Shown one piece after another: positions 1 through 51,860 of a stretch of 64,000 bases of DNA. The translations under genes were made by a program, and so were the position numbers. Position 1 is the stretch's first letter. Each line of letters begins with the position of its first letter. A model generated the notes under the pieces. It made no database searches. It was not told the origin of the DNA and saw only the letters and a list, made by a program, of their open reading frames with translations. The stretch comes from Podarcis pityusensis (Eukaryota). The stretch lies in assembly GCA_964106645.2 (NCBI GenBank), contig OZ067041.1. One strand, 5' to 3'.

Positions 1-2799
1 GAAGTGTCCGAGGTCAAAAGGCTCCCAGGAATCTGTCCTATACTGAGTCAGACCATTGGTACATCTAGCCCAGTATTAACTACCCAGAGCAGCAGCAGCT
101 CTCCAAGGATTTAGACAGACGTCTTTTGCAGTCCAGCTAGAGATTATTTTATTCTTATTTCAGACAATTTATACACTGCTTTATTGTGTATATATAAATA
201 AAAAAGTCAAAGTGATTTACAAAGAAACTCTTGGTCATCAGATGCCAGGAACCTAGGACCTTTTGCATGGACTGCATGTGCTCTAACCACTGAGCCAAGC
301 TCCATCCCTTTCACTATGCTTTCACTTTGCCACTATGCTTGACACCAAAGGGATTAAGGTCATGCATAATCAGGATTCCTAAGAATGCCTTTATGTAAAT
401 CGTACCCATTCGTTTACAGTAGGGCTCTTTTCTATTAGCTGTTCACAAATTATGTGTCAATTCTACACACAAAATGACTGAGATGTTCTTCTTTCACTTT
501 GTCATTTTTGTCCCATATCAATTCAGTATGGTTCCTGAAATGCAGTCTGTCATGGCTTTGTACTGAGAGGTCACTTAGGTGTACAGATGGTCTGAGATAT
601 GAAGCATGGGAAAAGAGAGGTTAAAAAAAAAAAAGATAGCTACTGTGCTGGAGGCTAAAGCCATAAACTAAGTTATACTGAATGTTCTCAGTGACTTTGA
701 GATACATGATCTCAGGAAGCTCAGCCATGCTACAACTGCTCCAGGTTGTGGTGGCGGGGGGAGGTATATCTCATTTCATAGAGAAGACCAGATGATTGTT
801 GGGTTTGGGCACAGAGCTGTGCCAATATTTTACATTGTGTGAAAATTTCAGGGTGAAGCCTTTTATTCCTCAGAGATTCAAAATGTGAACATTATTTGCC
901 CCAGCTCAGTATTCACACCTAGTAATTAAATGTAGAGTGTATTAGTACTTATAAAACATCTCAGTAACTCTTAGCAAAACTGTAATGTCGATCAGCATTA
1001 TTCCCATTTTACTGATGAGGGATTGAGGCACAATATAATGGTTTTCCTGAGTCCACCTAGTAAGTTCATGGCTGAAGAGAAATTTAAACCAGAGACATGC
1101 CAGTAGTTCATAGCTGAGAAACTTTGCTACACTAGCTCTCGGAATGTACCATGTGCTTTGTACATCGAAACACAGCGCTATCATTTCTACTTACAGCAAG
1201 AAAATGGACTGGTGATTTGATCAAGGAATGTCAATCCTGCATCTGGAAAACTACTCCCTTCAAAAGTAACTGCCTCCACCTTCCGTTAGCTTTCACATGT
1301 GTCTTTCTGTATGACTCTCAGAAAATGGAGAAGCCATTTGGTAGCTGGCTACTACATTGTACAGCATTCTCCATCCAATAAGTTTTCCCCTACCCTCTCC
1401 CATTCAATGGTCTGCTTATTTACAAACACCTATTATTGTCAAAGGGTTATCTTACATGCAGGATATATTCATTCAGGCTACAATCCTATACCTCAGGAAT
1501 AGGGAATCTGTGACCAGATGAGTTGAACTGGGCTTATTTCCAAGTTACGAAATCACAAGTCCAAATCGTTTTCCTGCTAGCAAGCACAGTTCCCATTACA
1601 TATGTGTTTCCATTTGCTTTAGTTTCCTTTCCTATATTCAGGAATTCTGTGCAACAGTTTTCCATGTAAGTCTGTGCAGCCACAATGAACCCAACACTGT
1701 ACTTTCTCTCATGTAGGCAAGTAGGAATTGCCATGATCCTTATGTAACTTGCATTCATCACTATGTAGCCGGCAAGGCATAAACCAGTGCAAGTGAGCCC
1801 CAAGGAAACCTTACGCAAACTTAAGACTGGTCTGAGAGTGTATCAATATGCTATTTTTTTCTTCTTTTAGTGATGTGTGTATGCATTTTTTAAAATGTGC
1901 TTACTAAAAAAAGTTATAAGAATGTACAGTTTGGCAAATTGAATTGAGAACATTGCATGTGCCAAGTATACTAGCACACAGCAGTGTTGCTACGTAATTG
2001 ATAATGTAATCATGCTTTTAGGTGAAAAGCAACATTGTAAAACCCCAGTGGCTTAGAATGTTAAACACTTAGATGGGTGGAATCTGATCCGTCATATCAG
2101 GTCCATAATGAGACTAATCTGAAATTGATTTTATATCAACTTTGATTATTATCAAAGTTTTCTCCAGTGGAGTTATGGTGGAAATTATATCACAAATGCA
2201 CGAGTGACGCAAATGTAAAAAGATAGGCTTTTTAAAATAACTGTATTTGAATTCAATCTGTAAGCTGCTAGACGACATTGGTTAATATGCAGGACGTCAT
2301 TTGAGCTTGGCTCACATGCCCCCAGGCATGTTTTAGCTTGGCTGAGGGACAACAAAGGCATCGCAAGCATGTACAGAGCTTGAACACTACCCAGCAGCCA
2401 TAACCAGCCCCCATATAGCTCAGATTCGGAACCATTTTAAAATATTTAATTTATCCTATTTATCCTATTTATCAAGTTTATATTCCACCCTTCCTCTCAA
2501 AGAAGCCCAGGATGGCAAACAGCAAAGTTAAACCAATATGATTTTAAACTCATGCTTTAGTTGAGATTCCTACACTGCAGGAGGTTGAACTAGATGGCCC
2601 TGGGAGTTCCTTCCATCTCCACAATTGTGTGGCTCCATGAAAATAAAAAACAAAAAACATATTTTAAATGCTTCAAAACAATTTAAAAGCCATCTAATTT
2701 CTTTGTAATTCAAAGTATTGAAAAACATTTAAAAGTTTTCAGATCGGTGAGCCCAAGGCTCCAAGCTTTCCTCAGATGTGATACGATGCAAAGTAACAT

Positions 2800-3078
2800 C
2801 AGGGGTGTAGGAAGAGGGGTAGGGGGGGTGCAGGCCCCCTGGCTGTCATCCCTGAGGGGGTGACAAAATGGCACACCGTGGGGGGGGGGCAGCACTTACC
2901 ACAGGGCCTGGCCTGCAGCGCGACCGAGCCGCGCGTCTCTCCTGGGAGTGACACGGTGGCTCGGGCCCCCACTCTGCCCGAAATGGCAGCGTGGGGCTTG
3001 CATCCACCAGGCGGACTCTGTGGGCAGCCTGCCCCGCCCCCGCCACTCCAGGTGCTGGAGCAGCTAGCTATGCCCCTG
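2800..3078. mobile_element. hAT MITE
   Basis: TIR CAGGGGTGTAG/CTATGCCCCTG; 8-bp TSD AGTAACAT/AGTAGCAT. Confidence 0.8.
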
Positions 3079-4275
3079 AGTAGCATCCATTCGCTTTTGA
3101 ACCCTCAGTGTCAAGAAAAGCAGCATGCAGTGATACAGATACAGATATATGATTCACCATGACTTATTTGGAAAAGTAACTCTATTTCTACATTAGCATC
3201 AGCAGCTGATATTATCTTGTCTTGGGTTTAGTCCCATTAAACTCAATTGGATTTCCTTCTGAGTAGGTAAACACAGGATTACGCTATGAGTAATGTAAAA
3301 TGCCATCATGTACACAACACAAAAAACACAGCCCAGATGCCAGAAAGAGCAGTATCACTTCATAAAAAAACAAGAGTCTTATACCAGCACCCATTTTAAA
3401 GCATATTGTGAGACAAGATCAAATTCAATATTTGTTTCAAACAGAAGTGCTATTATACTCTTCCCACTTGATGCAATGTTTGGAGCCTGCACATTTGTGC
3501 CAAGCTATTAGGAAAAAAATATTAAACATGAGGGGTCTGTGACAGATAAGCTTGAAATCGTTTCTTTATGTATGACATTTGTATGCCACCCCATGACATA
3601 AAGTTTGAGAAGTAAACAAGAATTGAAATAATAAAGTAGAACTATTAAAAATAAATGAAAGCCTTACTAGAAAATATAACTCATCATGTCCACAAAATTA
3701 AGCATAGATTCAGTGGGACAGCGGGAGCAGAGAATCTTAAGAAAGCACATATTGGAAAAGGCAGATTTTCAGGTAGCCTGCTCCCAATCCATTTAGGGCT
3801 TTCAAAGGTAAAACTTTAAATTGAGCTTAGAAATGGACTACCATTTCTACAACCAAGGTGCGGCTTCCGATTGGTTGCAGGAGCTTCAACTGGAAGCCGC
3901 GTCAGACATTCAGCTTCCAAATAATGTTTGCAAACCAGAACACTCACTTCTGTTTGGGAGCCAAAACGGATGAGTACCAAGGCGTTCGACAACCAAGGTA
4001 TGTTCCTGGGACATTTTTAAAAGCAGCCTCATGTTCAGTGCAATACAATACCCAAAATGGGAAGTTAACAGAGTATGATGAGTAATCATAACCAATCCAG
4101 GTAACGTTTTGGAGGCTTCTTAAGTCTCTGGTGACAATGTTGGGTCAGACTGCAAATACAAGCCTGCAAACCACTTTATTAGGTGGACATCATTACCTGA
4201 CATCAGGTAAAGCATTTCCTTTTGCAGACCAGCATGAATTAAAAATCAGATTCGGTGCCAAATTCAAACCTTGTT

Positions 4276-5174
4276 TGTAGCAGGGATCAACTGCGCTTAG
4301 GAGCCCTGATTGGGAGCTCCTGAGTGGAGCCAATCTGAGTTGGCCTTGCATTTGGAGCCAGACTTGGAAATCGAGTCCTCCTCACAAAGGGCATGTGTTG
4401 TGGTGAGATCATCAGAACTGACCTCACTGTTTGTGTGGGTGGGAGCGATTGGATAGCCACAACAACCCAATTGGTGGTCCCTCGGTTGCTAGGCAGATCT
4501 GGCCAATGAGGAATTTTGTGTATTAACCAAGGGGAATTTTGTGTATTAACCAAGGGACCTGCACGTTGTGTCGAGCTTCTTGTGCATCGGATCACCCACC
4601 CACCCTCCCTATATTTAGGGTCTTTCTATGACCTTGCTATGCCATCATGGGTCATCTGCTGTTGGGCAGGGGCACTGTAGGAATTTTCCCATTTGGCTGA
4701 TTGGCTGGTGCAACTTGGGTTTCGCCTGCCGCGTAGCTAATCGTCAAAACTTTGTAAGGTTTGGTGGTTAGGCATTGGTTCAAGGTGGTCTGGAGGGGGG
4801 GGGTTGGAGCACCTGTCCCTTCCAATGCGCAAAGGTATTCCGTTAAAGGAATCCAGGGATTCACCATGCTTTTGTCAACCCCTTTGGGGGGGTAAGGCCA
4901 CGCAAGAGTCCCTGGGAGCATTTGGGGTGAGCTTGAGTCTGATCCTGGACCATTACTCCCCCACGACGTTTACCTGTACTGACGATATGATGTGGCCCAG
5001 TCATCAGTGCTGCCCTGCTGAGGTCAGAGGCAGCTAGTCGGGAACTAATGCCTAAACAAACCACTCACTATCTGTAATCAATAAAGTTGTGGCCAAAATT
5101 ATGCCAATAACCTAAAACTAAATTCTGTGTCAATTGTGTCTTTATTTATTGGGAAGCTCCTGGGGATCTTAACA
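4276..5174 (+). mobile_element. LTR-like or DIRS/Ngaro-like terminal repeat
   Basis: Several CCAAT boxes, TATA-like CCTATATTTA at ~4608, AATAAAGTTGTGGCC at ~5080, 23-bp tandem duplication at 4510-4555; no TSD found; boundaries approximate. Confidence 0.45.
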
Positions 5175-8100
5175 CGCAAGCCATACATTCCAAGCTATGT
5201 TTACAGAGGAACAATCTAGAGTACTCTTTAAGGCTTCCATTTGTTGCTTTATAGCAGCGTTTAGAACAGGCTGAACATAATGCTGGAGCAAAAGACAAAA
5301 AATAGGTATAAGTGCATTTTTCTTTAAAAAATGTTTAGGGGTAGTCTCTTTTTTCCTACTCATCTTGAAATATTGCCCCTCAATGAGGCCAAACTTAGAT
5401 TCACAAAATGTTTAGAGGTATGCGTCCCCCTAGAAAAAAGGCACTGGGTATAAAAGGAAAATTCCTAGATGCCAAAATCCATGTTTGGGGCAAGTACTCT
5501 TTGGTGAGAAAACCCCTGAAGAGATTTAAAATCACAAAATATGTAGCAAAATAACACAGGGAAATATAAAGTTGATAGATCTTTAAAATATGGTTTTTCT
5601 AAGTGAGTTCCAAAATATTCCAATCTTCCCCCAGCATAGGAAAAGACCACACATTTTGTAAGTTAAAAATGGTTTACTTACAAACTCTCCAAAGGTCAGG
5701 TTCATGTGCTTTTCCATACATCGGTCAGAAAGGTTGCACAAGCGGTAAAACTTAGTTTAGTTCTAAAGTGGTGAAAGACCCTAAGTTATAGGGACACAAA
5801 AATGGCTTGTGCTGAGTTCATCAGGTAGACTGGAGGGGAATAAAGGCTAGTTCCTCCCAAGGTGAGAGGAACTAGATATAGCTAAGCCCAGCAGAATAGC
5901 TTACTCTATGATATTAACCCCTTCATCCATTAAGTAGACTTAAGCATGTTGGTTATATGAGGCTGGTTATCCCACAAATAATTCACCTGGGTGCATGAAA
6001 AGCATGCTCATCTTGTTAAGTCTTCATTTGTTCTCCCTCATAGCTGATTTTGTAGCGGCCAGATTGTTGTTAGGATACTGTGTGAGTGTGTTGTCCTGTC
6101 TTTAACATTTCTTTTTGTGGCTAATGCCATGCAGGGCAATAGCTCTGAGCATACAATAGCTCACAATGCTGCACCTTGCAATAACAGCTCTTGCTATTAC
6201 AATACACCAACCCACGCACTGTGAGTGGCATAGTGATAGTACAGCAGTCCTTACACTCCTTCCTGAACACCTATTTGCTGGCATGGCAACTCACCTGAGA
6301 GTGAGAGATATTTGTTTGGTTCTGTTTTACAATTACTAAGCTTTTTTGTGGATAAGACAGCTTTCTTTCTCAGAAGATCATCAATTTTCAAATTATAAGG
6401 TAACACGTGTAGAGTTATTAAGCAGTCACAAGCAGCGTCTGCAACCAAGGCTAGAGGATGAGCAGCCCCCTAGCATAATACGTAACTTTGGAAATATCTA
6501 ATGTTGTATTTAGTTTCTTCACTTAGATGCCATTCCAATAGATGATGCTTCCATTTCTTAAGTATTGCAGTTGCTTTGTGAATCATGAAAACCAGGCAAC
6601 ATTATAATTGACAAGGAACCCAGAGAGATTCACTGTTATCTGAGAGACTGACTACTGTATACAGAATTTAAATGCAGCATTTTAATTCAATCTACTCTAT
6701 TGGCCTCCTAGTTACATAACAAGGAAATGAATTCAGCATTGTAAGAGATATTCAGTGAATTGCAAGGGAAGGGAAGAACCACTAACTAAATAGAAGAAAA
6801 AATATGTAAGATCACATTTTCAATTGCTTTTACAAACCTATTTCAAGACAAAGATAAAAAAGAAATTCAATATGAATTTTCAAAAAGCCTCTTTTATTCT
6901 CTTATTAGATATACTAGAAAGTGATTAGCATCTCTATATTTTTCCCCTTAAAGCCGAAAGAGAACTATAAAGTTGCAGGTCATATCCTTTGTAAAGCCTC
7001 AAGTGATTTCTTCCACTTTCCTTTCCCTATTACAGACATTGTTAGAGAAAGTCTAATTCTAGAAAATCACTCACAAAAGTAAAAAATCAATGTCAGGTGG
7101 AACTTTAGGGAATAGACTGCAGAGAATCTCAGGCACCAGAATGGTTTGTATGTGACTGACAGATGAAACAGAAGAAATCAATAGGATGCTTTGAACAAGG
7201 TACCACAGGAAGCAATGAATGCATATTTCAAACTGTGTAATAGTTTATGCATGGCAAACAGTACCAAGGCAACTATCCAATTACTATCAAGGAATGCTCC
7301 ATTCAAGAACACACTGATGACTTTGATAGAATGAAAGAAGCCTTGATGTTTGAGAGTTGTCCTGGTAGCAGCACCTTTGCTAGCTGAGCAAAGTTAAAAG
7401 ATTTTTGACAAAATAGGCCCTCTTTCAACAACAGAATTTGAATTAAGATGACCATACTTCTTGTGTATGCATCAGAACAACTCTGGTGCAGTCTGCATGG
7501 GTATGGTGCATATTAAGAACATCTTAAACTAATATAGAACATGACAAATCAATTCATACAAGTCTAGTTTTATTTTGGAATCTTAAGGGGTCACCTATCT
7601 GTTTTTTTAAAAATAGTTTTTTAATTTGACGAAGAAAAAACAAAAATACAGGGAAGGAAGGGAAGGCAGGGGAACTCATCAGCTCACTTGCAAAAGATGA
7701 AACTCTATATTTTCTCAGACAGACTGGAAGCAGAATCTAGACTGTAATTCTAACCCCACTTACCCAGGAGTAAGCCCCATTTAATTCAATAGGACTTACT
7801 TCTGAGTGTACATGGTTAAGCTTCTTCTGAATGTCTGAAATACCATGATAGGTTCTTGGATGCATAAAATCCCTACCAGATTTCCTTGCACATAGGCATA
7901 TACATTTAAGTCATTTCCCTGCACTTACCCTTGTCACCCTCTGTCGTTCGTTCCTAACTATGCAACAACATGATTCTGTAACAAAAAGAATAAATGGCAT
8001 TTCAGTGCTAACTGAAAGTAGACTGTCAGATAGGAAAAAATGGTTGTGCTCCTTAAAGCTCATTTCAAGATGGGAGAGGGTTCAAAGGAGAGCTGTAGAG

Positions 8101-39349: not shown

Positions 39350-40013
39350 CTGAAATTTAAATTGGAATGTGTTCAGCAGAAAATTAACAAACAAAGAAAA
39401 GATAAAAATCATGAAGATTGGTTTTTGTTATATAACGTTCTGGGAAATCAAAACTAACATCAGCTCATAAGAACTTAGACTCAAGTAATGCACGCTGAGT
39501 TCTATTCAGTGGCGTAGCGTGGGGGGTGCCAGGGGTGCCGGCCGCACCGGGCGCAACTTCTGGGGGGGCGCGCTCGCTGCCTCCGGAATCGCCCAGAGCC
39601 CCATGGCAGCGGCTCTCAGCGCTCGCTGCGGAAGGCGCGCCAGGCAGCCCCTCCTCACCGACGGGCAGCGTTCGCCTGCGGGGCTCGGCCAGCGCGCAGG
39701 GCTGGCCGCATGGAGTTGCCGGGGAGCCGCCGCCGCCTGCCATGCCGCCCTGGCTGCTTCAGCCGCGTCCGACAGCCGGCTCGAGGCTCCTTCCGGCCAG
39801 GTCTCCCGATGGGGTGCTGCGGGCGGAGGCTTCGGCACCAAGCGCCACGCCGCCCACCCGCCCCGACGGGGCCCGCCCACCCGCGCCGGAGGCTGGCCAA
39901 CCCACTGGCCCCAGAGGCGCCCCCTCCCCGCGCCAGAAAGAAGCCGCGTCAGGGCTAGCCGGGCCGGGGAGGGAGACCGAGAAGGCTGCGCCGCAACGCC
40001 CAAAGACGCTGTG

Positions 40014-40364
40014 ATGGCCTGGGATTCCGATTCGGAGGATGAAACAGAGGAATCCCAGCCTGCACAGGAGTCCCCGCCTCCAGGGCCGGCTGAACTGGGG
40101 CAAGGCCTAGATGCTGAAGAGCCTGCACCTGTGGCAGTGCATCAGGAGCTGGCCCCAGGTGAAGCCCTTCTGGCCCCAGAGGGGCTTGATGACTCAGTGG
40201 CCACAGGTGAGCCTCCTCCAGGGCCCAGTAACCCTTCGGCCTCTCCTGATCTGCAGAGGCTTAGGGCAGAGAGGCGAAGGGAACTGGTTGCCCCCAGGAG
40301 GAGTGCTCGCCTTAAGGCCAGAGGAGGCGGGGCTCCTGGGGACCGGGACCGCCCCTGGCCTTAG
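40014..40364 (+). CDS. LTR-internal ORF, 116 aa, acidic N-terminus and basic RRSARL C-terminal region; function unknown
   Basis: ATG at LTR position 5; TAG at 40362-64 just before the TATA-like box; uninterrupted. Translation not demonstrated. Confidence 0.4.
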   Translation: MAWDSDSEDETEESQPAQESPPPGPAELGQGLDAEEPAPVAVHQELAPGEALLAPEGLDDSVATGEPPPGPSNPSASPDLQRLRAERRRELVAPRRSARLKARGGGAPGDRDRPWP

Positions 40365-40440
40365 AAGAGGATAAAAGCCCAGTCAGCCCGGCCCCAGGTT
40401 GCGGGAGCAACGTCGTTGTTGGCTTCGGACCTTCCTGTGT

Positions 40441-40700
40441 TCCTGATCCCTGCTCGGCCTCCTGTTCCTGACTATCCGGTACTCCTGTTCCCTGCTCGGC
40501 TTCCTGTTCCTGACTATCCGGTACTCCTGATCCCTGCTCGGCCTCCTGTTCCTGACTATCCGGTACTCCTGTTCCCTGCTCGGCTTCCTGTTCCTGACTA
40601 TCCGGTACTCCTGTTCCCTGCTCGGCCTCCTGTTCCCGACCATCCGGTGTTCCTGTTCCCTGCACAGCCTCCTGTTCCAGCGTTCCTGTTCCCCGCCCGG
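40441..40700. repeat. 42-bp tandem array (five full units plus degenerate ones) inside the solo LTR
   Basis: Unit TCCTG(A/T)TCCCTGCTCGGC(C/T)TCCTGTTCCTGACTATCCGGTAC starting at 40441, 40483, 40525, 40567 and 40609. Confidence 0.95.
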
Positions 40701-41009
40701 CTCTCTGCCTCGGACCTTGCCCCTCTTCGTGTGGACTCTGCTACACCCAAGGTACCTTACCCCCGGGACCAGCACAGACGCGCGTCTTGGCGCAAAGGGG
40801 CCCACGGCACCCAGACGCGGAAGGGACCCTCTCCCCCTGACCCGCCACTGAACTGCAATTCCCAGCTCCCTTGGCAAATCCCAGTGCCCAATCCCCATGC
40901 TTTATTTGAGGCAGGGGTCCTTTAATTGCAAAAACAACACCACGGAGGGCAGTAGTCACTACGAAATTTGCCCCAGAGTAGAGCCGTCAGTATTAATGAC
41001 CATGGTTAG

Positions 41010-41075
41010 GGGTTAGGGGGCGCAAATTACTTGCCTTGCCCCGGGTTAGGGGGCGCAAATTACTTGCCTTGCCCC
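41010..41075. repeat. 33-bp tandem duplication in the hAT right subterminal region
   Basis: GGGTTAGGGGGCGCAAATTACTTGCCTTGCCCC twice, exact. Confidence 0.9.
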
Positions 41076-41681
41076 GGGTGCTGACTACCCACGCTACGCC
41101 GCTGGTTCTATTACAGTCAGTGAGTTTATGCACAGGAAAATGGATTATACTTTGGCTCCTTTGTCACTCCAGCTATAATATAATATATATGTGCATTCCT
41201 TTCTGTCTTATTTCACTATTAGTCATCTTGCTTTACTGATTTACTAAGCTTGTGGCCCCATGCAGACGATGGTGTGGTGAAGAAGAGTACTCAGAGAGTA
41301 GCCACAATTGCCCTCAGTTCAGTTGGATTAGTTGGCTTAACTGCTTTTCTTTTGTCTTGTGCAAACCATAAGGACAAGAAGATCCCCAAAACAAGTCAGA
41401 TTCAGAAGGTAACTTAGAACCTATTTGGAAGACATCAACAGTAATTCCTGGTTCATGTGTAACAGGAAGTACAGTTACTTCCTGGTTTGATTTCTTGGTT
41501 TGCACCAGAAGCGGAGCAGAAGCAAAGGGGTGCTGTGCAAGTGTATGGAATACATGCATATAACTGGTCTATTAAGCTAATGTTTAATTATCTGTGCACA
41601 GCTAGTATCTTCATTATTGCACAACCAGGAAATTATCCATAGCGTGCTGTTTCCACTTGCAGGATAATTAATAGCTCTTAC

Positions 41682-51239: not shown

Positions 51240-51860
51240 CTCTGGACCACGCAATCGCCGCAGGAGGAAAAGAGCGCAGGGGTGACTTTGCCAATTCCGA
51301 CGGCGGAGAGGGCGGGGCGGTCTCCTTGCAGCTAGGGAAACCCCGCCCCTCTCCACAGTCCCGTCAGTCAGTTGCTAGGATACCCGGCAGGGTGGCGGCT
51401 TCTTAACGCCCGTCTGCTTAACAAGCGTTCGGTGTGCCGTAAAGCGCGCTCACCCTCGGCCCCTCTTTTGCCTGTCGCGCGCGTCCGCTGCTTTACGGCC
51501 TCTCTCGCTTAGCTTCGGCTCCGCGGCAGCCCCGCCCCTTCTCCCGCACCTGCCCCACCCACTTTCCATCTGCTATCCCAGCGCGCAGATGGAGCTGCCG
51601 CCTTGACTGGCTCTTCCCTGCGTCTCTCGCGCACAGCTGGGCTGCTGGCCGCTGTCATGACAAGCCCAGGGAAGGCAGACGAGCCGGACCGGACGCTTTT
51701 CGTGGGGAACTTGGAGAGCCGCGTGCAAGAGGAGATTCTCTACGAGCTTTTCCTGCAGGTGCAGGGGACGGCGGGGCGGGGCCACCTTGGCAGGTGGGCA
51801 GGGCGATCTGCAAGTGGGCGGGGCTGGCGAGCCGTCGGCTGCAGGGAAGAGGAATGCTTA
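51240..51860 (+). promoter_or_regulatory. RBM11 CpG-island promoter with GC boxes and an RFX X-box-like site
   Basis: High CpG density; GGGCGGGGCGG at ~51310, CCCCGCCCC at 51341 and 51530; GTTGCTAGGATAC at 51371-51383. Confidence 0.75.
51657..51758 (+). CDS. RBM11: RBM11 coding exon 1 (MTSPGKADEPDRTLFVGNLESRVQEEILYELFLQ)
   Basis: RNP2 motif LFVGNL, donor CAG|GTGCAG, within a CpG island. Confidence 0.92.

Follow-up and report, generated by a model that had tools for sequence, protein, structure and literature searches.

The open frame of 116 codons at positions 40014..40364 of the window, the whole stretch of 64,000 nucleotides of Podarcis pityusensis DNA analysed here, is almost certainly the C-terminal tail of a chromovirus Pol. 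From its sequence, we lean towards reading the RRSARL motif in this tail as a putative integrase-borne tether to the H2A–H2B acidic patch, lying beside the chromodomain. The frame falls short of a new micro-protein system, yet it is more than a chance ORF.

Translation of the window from 40014 to 40364 gave 116 amino acids without a stop. As the original prediction had stated, the ATG is base 5 of the LTR, and the TATA-like GATAAA at 40370 lies 5 nt past the stop. RRSARL was found at 40296–40313, where it had been predicted, with a proline immediately before it. The predicted change from acidic to basic was also seen, the net charge being −18 for residues 1–75 and +7 for residues 76–116. The layout is that of an acidic N-terminal part, a Pro/Ala/Glu linker and a basic C-terminal part containing RRSARL. 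The features of the solo LTR and its tail are as follows.

40005..40009, + strand: left target-site duplication GACGC
40010..40776, + strand: solo LTR, 767 bp, TG...CA, from subfamily A of a young Ty3/Gypsy chromovirus family
40014..40364, + strand: U3-encoded last 116 codons of Pol (residues 1125–1240), an orphaned integrase C-terminal tail from behind the chromodomain
40014..40052, + strand: acidic Ser/Asp/Glu segment, tail residues 1–13, with inherited changes that are partly conservative (D>E)
40245..40286, + strand: predicted basic helix ahead of the motif, tail residues 78–91 (AlphaFold2)
40296..40313, + strand: RRSARL, an HMGN/Dsup-like arginine-anchor motif as defined in PMC12487698 and PMC13347269
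40370..40377, + strand: TATA-like GATAAAAG
40441..40678, + strand: 42-bp tandem repeat in 5.7 copies, where the LTR is no longer coding
40777..40781, + strand: right target-site duplication GACGC

In 20,000 dinucleotide resamples of U3, a 116-codon open frame appeared in a fraction of 0.028. RRSxR[LI] appeared within the 116-codon frame in 0.0007 of them and in any of the six frames in 0.004, and a residue shuffle gave 0.0003; these figures for the motif are too low, because it was picked post hoc. A Pfam profile search of the tail returned no family at E≤0.1, and an ESM Atlas search returned nothing at 0.9 or above (best 0.79). The basic helix is the sole helix in a single-sequence AlphaFold2 model (pLDDT about 64–72) that is poor overall, and the SH3–chromo–tail segment modelled in the same way had a mean pLDDT of 41.

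The LTR at 40010–40776 had been called solo, and we agree, since its TG...CA ends are flanked on both sides by the 5-bp duplication GACGC. It is a leftover copy that most likely makes no tail protein. The copy number of the 42-bp repeat differs among elements, which have LTRs of 683, 725 and 767 bp. No pile-up of read starts indicating a transcription start was seen at the TATA-like box in the RNA reads of four runs. The solo LTR is nested in a GC-rich non-coding DNA transposon (window 39507–41104). Its inverted ends measure 17 bp and its duplication, GTTCTATT, 8 bp, and by these two properties we take the transposon to be hAT-like. Upstream of the tail the frame stays open to an ATG at 39603, giving a 253-aa ORF (window 39603–40364); this is because the ATG of the flanking transposon happens to be in frame with the LTR tail, an arrangement unique to this insertion site. 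Further along the window, 51657–51760, in a GC-rich stretch, is the start of an exon of an RNA-binding (RRM) gene, presumably RBM7/RBM11-like.

The LTR had been described as Gypsy-type, and Pfam domain order together with the chromodomain identifies the element as a Ty3/Gypsy chromovirus. In element L031, a Gag of 298 aa is followed by a Pol of 1240 aa (1927–5649) with the order protease–RT–RNase H–integrase–SH3–chromodomain, ending in the 116 aa. The chromodomain (PF00385, Pol residues 1054–1101, E 6.5e-15) has the group I aromatics Y, W and Y, as judged by eye. Paired TG...CA LTRs, a polypurine tract and a 5-bp target duplication were present in all nine elements examined. The family is very young: genome-wide, the best 40 DNA matches were 98–100% identical, all 150 scored protein matches were 100% identical, and among nine full elements the 5' and 3' LTRs were identical in eight and differed at two positions in one. 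A U3 pattern had 894 matches in the genome and a control pattern none, and copies of the LTR family are spread along many contigs. The flanks of 58 insertion sites had a mean GC of 0.49, a value that has no matched control. A search of the genome with the Rhineura protein returned solely this same young family, and a pattern for the 18-nt-deletion subfamily (UniRef P0179/P0180) had no match in the genome.

The subfamilies differ in how Gag and Pol are arranged. In subfamily A they occupy two overlapping frames (977–1873 and 1837–5649 in L031), and ahead of the Gag stop lies a GGGAAAC heptamer that is presumably a PEG10-type −1 slip site. In many copies of subfamilies B and C, a single Gag–Pol frame spans 1623 or 1594 codons free of stops (L100 1427–6298, L103 1494–6278).

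The original prediction was of a separate U3-encoded accessory micro-protein, and it asked whether the ORF is separate from integrase. It is not. In full-length copies Pol passes the chromodomain and the polypurine tract and reaches 355 nt inside the 3' LTR, and the tail is in frame with Pol in 7/9 full elements. Among 113 distinct 3' LTRs it is in frame in 94; the frame is broken between chromodomain and LTR in 16, mostly at a G run, and within the tail in three. A Podarcis muralis protein of 1240 aa in UniRef, 99% identical over the searched region, contains the tail without comment. The ATG lies in the LTR terminus itself (TGTGATG); a Met stands at the matching place in Anolis, Rhineura and Salvator tails, and none does in the tails of the snake (DSVV) and of a second Podarcis family (EVDVR). 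A free micro-protein was accordingly rejected as the main reading.

The spacing of a G run before the polypurine tract differs in 14/112 copies (for example L040–L043, L190, L191 and L203), which uncouples the tail. These changes are recurrent slips or assembly errors, not one lineage. A tail-less sublineage was considered and found no support: ten frame-shifted copies were comparable free of indel noise, and nine of these were nearest an in-frame copy. Since frame-broken copies are mostly nearest to in-frame ones, they do not form a lineage.

Four raw runs picked by species label gave 174, 147, 234 and 54 RNA reads on the element, with coverage of the internal region that in two bulk runs was almost exclusively in the orientation expected of sense RNA. 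No joint into the 3' LTR occurred among these 609 reads, at a depth so low that a rare spliced form could go unseen. Contigs from another four runs, which are only presumed to be RNA data, likewise never joined into the beginning of the 3' LTR, and those from three of the four span the chromodomain–LTR junction without interruption by more than 60 bases on each side.

Polymorphism and divergence indicate weak purifying selection on the tail. Among 171 LTRs (61 haplotypes), variants common to at least three copies were called inherited and set against private ones. Inherited variants comprised 27 synonymous and 46 nonsynonymous changes (pN/pS 0.61) and private variants 22 and 101 (pN/pS 1.63; Fisher p=0.004); for tail residues 77–92 the inherited pN/pS was 0.19. 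A dN/dS below 1 had been anticipated, and pairwise comparison of four subfamily copies gave 1.43 for one of six pairs and 0.44–0.62 for the other five. In those same five pairs, reading the tail in the +1 and +2 frames gave 1.2–1.8, and RT, RNase H and the integrase core gave 0.03–0.12 in five well-diverged pairs. The expectation that indels come in multiples of three was borne out as well: net U3 indels among eight subfamily copies were 0 or 30 nt, while R/U5 had many of all sizes (a ninth copy, whose LTR end was out of view, was left out). An LTR start was present in 29 of 30 loci sampled in genome order. The motif was in register in 27, at spacings of 259, 265 and 289 nt, although one of the 27 stops early; a shift was seen in two single copies. 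Four copies have RRSARF in place of RRSARL.

The same data contain a sign of a second constraint. Tail dS was 0.13–0.18 compared with 0.37–0.44 for RT, and the motif codons had no inherited synonymous change in this genome. Because of these two observations we consider that a promoter-level constraint on the DNA overlaps the tail, and the Podarcis genome alone therefore cannot show protein-level selection on the motif.

The original prediction also proposed a search for the motif in other LTR families, and this succeeded in some and failed in others. From 46 Anolis proteins, 35 with a full tail by anchor were reduced to 33 distinct tails (2 of the 11 dropped carry the motif), and 30 of these have it, as RRSARI in 19 and RRSLRI in 11. 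The Anolis tails are 85–97 aa long with a mutual identity of 45–100%. Their R-R-S-x-R-I order is almost invariant and the adjacent basic residues vary; the motif is not their sole conserved part, since one third of the columns are at least 95% conserved. Podarcis and Anolis tails can be aligned solely at the motif (BLASTP E=0.40). RRSPRL occurs in the frog Leptobrachium (clusters P0425 and P0426; 4/6 listed members with a readable tail), RRSQRL in another cluster, P0256, and RRSARI in an unnamed ENA protein, P0141. The element motifs all retain both anchor arginines and the serine, with A, L, P or Q at the free position, which is the one that differs between HMGN RRSAR and Dsup RRSSR.

A broader count was made in 278 clusters with one chromovirus-type chromodomain, kept from 374 hits of searches that had been seeded with motif-bearing tails. 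RRSxR[LIV] within 200 residues after the chromodomain was present in 10/278, compared with 0.48 in shuffles, and three permuted motifs of the same composition were present in none. The ten clusters represent about five lineages, five of the ten clusters belonging to one Anolis family, and 135/278 clusters have short tails of 30 aa or less. Public gene models (for example, Ranitomeya records) often splice a chromovirus chromodomain to unrelated host exons, so the motif counts are diluted. The strict motif was not found in the tails of snake P0213 and P0319 or of Rhineura P0051, nor in any of nine tailed members of the second Podarcis family; these tails end in other basic runs. Among 30 chromodomain-pattern loci in the genome, mostly of decayed older families, RRSxRL in frame with the chromodomain was seen only in L173, past a stop, and three decayed copies with a WEDA-type chromodomain pattern had no readable motif.

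Two further observations concern these tails. The older decayed families (L147–L176) apparently have an acidic tail running from chromodomain into LTR and ending in Ser-Pro and basic runs, and 11/30 of their loci (17/39 matches) lie on one 38-Mb contig, C19. RGRP, which we take to be an AT-hook core, occurs behind the chromodomain in 22/278 tails compared with 3.4 in shuffles, fish and Rhineura included (for example P0051, P0345, P0346, P0245, P0269 and P0274). RGRP and RRSxR do not co-occur in any of the 278 clusters, which is uninformative because about one overlap is expected.

A quick Pol tree of 27 rows (LG+G4; short and long-branch rows excluded) placed the squamate families, with tails of 119–196 aa, on one side of a branch with SH-aLRT 100. 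A single clade of all motif rows was rejected (p-AU 1.75e-122), and support for joining Podarcis with Anolis was insufficient (72). The rejection implies at least two origins of the motif, or repeated loss. In a quick tree of 61 rows, seven of them less than half filled, squamate branching was not settled.

We propose the following working of the tail. Genomic RNA would end in U3–R, so that translation of Pol would cross the polypurine tract and end at a stop shortly ahead of the TATA-like box. Mature integrase would then keep the tail, following SH3 and chromodomain. A leash may be formed by about 75 disordered acidic/Pro residues, and the short basic helix with RRSARL could place arginines into the acidic patch in the manner of HMGN2 and Dsup. 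Three-aromatic chromodomain (defined in PMC3605345) and anchor would together bind the nucleosome at two points, which may raise integration efficiency or bias the sites.

This tether reading takes over part of the original interpretation. An HMGN-like motif serving as an integration tether is strengthened by a selected frame and by the recurrence of the motif in Anolis and frog chromoviruses, but a separate accessory protein is not what carries it, given the fusion to Pol. Weakening it are the snake and other lizard families without the motif, and against it stands that the final two residues of the HMGN core (SA) are not retained in RRSARLKA. According to the cryo-EM work in PMC12487698, RRSAR of HMGN2 and PPRRSSRLT of Dsup use two arginines and a serine to contact the acidic patch, and PMC13347269 reports that yeast Dot5 RRSARIAT depends on the same arginines. 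Complex prediction for tail residues 72–108 with this genome's own H2A/H2B (score 0.02, mark 0.34, controls not folded) speaks neither for nor against binding; AlphaFold 3 is described as failing on the HMGN2–nucleosome complex in PMC12487698. For foamy virus, PMC9040877 describes an arginine anchor in Gag that serves chromatin binding and site choice, and reports that loss of this binding in PFV shifts integration sites (related papers: PMC12125541, PMC6282019).

More broadly, vertebrate chromoviruses may have more than once fused an HMGN-mimic acidic-patch anchor, encoded in the promoter half of the LTR, to integrase as a two-point reader. The slot after the chromodomain would then be a swappable targeting socket, holding AT-hooks elsewhere. 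The comparisons leave us close to evenly divided on this proposal, inclining slightly against it.

The basic end of the integrase tail could instead serve nuclear import or bind nucleic acids in general, with phosphorylation of its acidic/Ser-Pro sites as a possible switch. Such a role would fit squamate tails without the motif (P0213, P0449, P0051, L170), which also end in Ser/Pro and basic runs, and the SPRRSARL of subfamilies B and C, which we take to be a CDK-type site. Regulated import signals have an acidic-then-basic layout like that of the tail. Against such a role, lysine occurs just once in the tail and K[KR]x[KR], the classical import signal consensus, is missing; R-R-S-x-R-I is nearly invariant in Anolis amid varying basic neighbours, and permuted motifs of equal composition are absent (0/278). 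We consider an import segment rather unlikely, and we doubt to the same degree its corollary that RRSARL is one among several ways of being basic.

It is improbable that the tail is a tolerated read-through, with an incidental peptide and a conserved stretch that is really a promoter element about 60–75 nt upstream of the TATA-like box. The low tail dS and the motif codons without inherited synonymous change in this genome are in keeping with such an element, as are the position of the Pol stop near the LTR edge in many chromoviruses and the uncoupling of the tail in 16/113 copies. Yet indels keep the frame in both Podarcis and Anolis, inherited variants have a synonymous excess, the Ala/Leu swap that Anolis has at the motif's free position requires at least two base changes, and frame-broken copies form no lineage.

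Least likely is a free 116-aa HMGN mimic made from the ATG at LTR base 5, on spliced or read-through RNA, besides or instead of the Pol tail: this ATG has G at −3 and +4, the Anolis, Rhineura and Salvator tails share the Met, RNA reads cover U3 and host transcripts could read through hundreds of LTR copies, but the ATG is the LTR end and its Met is absent from the snake and second Podarcis family tails, reads and contigs have no joint into the 3' LTR and run on from chromodomain to LTR, and in a 5' or solo LTR, U3 sits upstream of the LTR's own start site.

The tail, read as a putative integrase-borne tether, can be set beside several known systems. MMTV sag and lentiviral nef also have coding sequence that overlaps U3; these are separate genes with their own spliced mRNAs, whereas the Podarcis frame is fused to Pol, has no joint at the low depth available and lacks a start codon kept in related tails. 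With vertebrate chromoviruses the element shares Gag followed by PR–RT–RH–IN–SH3–chromodomain, TG...CA LTRs, the 5-bp duplication and the polypurine tract. Relatives were found in Anolis, snakes, frogs and fish, and we take the group to be the Sushi/PEG10-related vertebrate chromoviruses. It differs in that the squamate clade adds a 3'-LTR-encoded tail of ~90–170 aa after the chromodomain and in that the tails of the Podarcis and Anolis families end in RRSxR[LI]. We did not find a squamate LTR-encoded tail after the chromodomain described in the literature covered. In plants, the Pol frames of CRM group A and of Beta Bingo elements enter the 3' LTR, whose coding part in CRM is a putative CR targeting motif (PMC3059260, PMC3605345). 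The Podarcis Pol frame enters the 3' LTR in like manner (355 nt; 94/113). In CRM group A the CR motif stands in for the chromodomain, whereas the Podarcis element keeps a chromodomain upstream of the polypurine tract and adds a second, linear motif in the LTR, a contrast with CR drawn from description only.

With HMGN, the tail has in common the RRSAR core, including the serine and the two anchor arginines, and the RRSAR portion modelled in the HMGN2 structure is complete. It differs from HMGN in matching the core RRSARLSA at 6/8 residues (RRSARLKA), in having no profile match and in being fused to Pol instead of a free small nuclear protein. The proline ahead of the motif resembles that in PPRRSSRLT of Dsup, and Dot5 RRSARIAT is close to Anolis RRSARIAA; with both proteins the tail shares RRSxR[LI], the two anchor arginines and a predicted disordered region, judged here by composition and a low-confidence model. 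In contrast to HMGN, Dsup and Dot5, the motif here is a putative anchor on a retrotransposon integrase. PFV Gag, KSHV LANA and HCMV IE1 have short arginine anchors of foreign elements on the acidic patch; these are carried by Gag or by nuclear proteins of viruses, and the available text of PMC9040877 does not term them HMGN-like, while the Podarcis motif is at the Pol C-terminus, adjoining the chromodomain. We conclude that the Podarcis element is a chromovirus and a member of neither HMGN nor CRM.

LTR-encoded integrase tails are already known from plant CRM; what is new is the recurrent HMGN-like motif on such a tail. In the literature covered, which largely lacked subscription journals, supplements and repeat-library annotations, we found no retrotransposon integrase described as carrying an acidic-patch or HMGN-like motif. 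For annotation, the apparent micro-ORF in solo LTRs of these families is merely an orphaned Pol tail, and the same stretch of DNA doubles as promoter region and integrase code. Few studies address insertion-site choice and access by vertebrate chromoviruses. The motif is six residues long and of a kind whose binding mode is solved, which permits a direct test at the peptide level, and young families with hundreds of copies make insertion maps comparable between motif-bearing and motif-less lineages. If the tether reading is true, a retrotransposon would for the first time be reported to have an HMGN-like motif, and mobile elements would join HMGN, Dsup and Dot5 among the few HMGN-like proteins.
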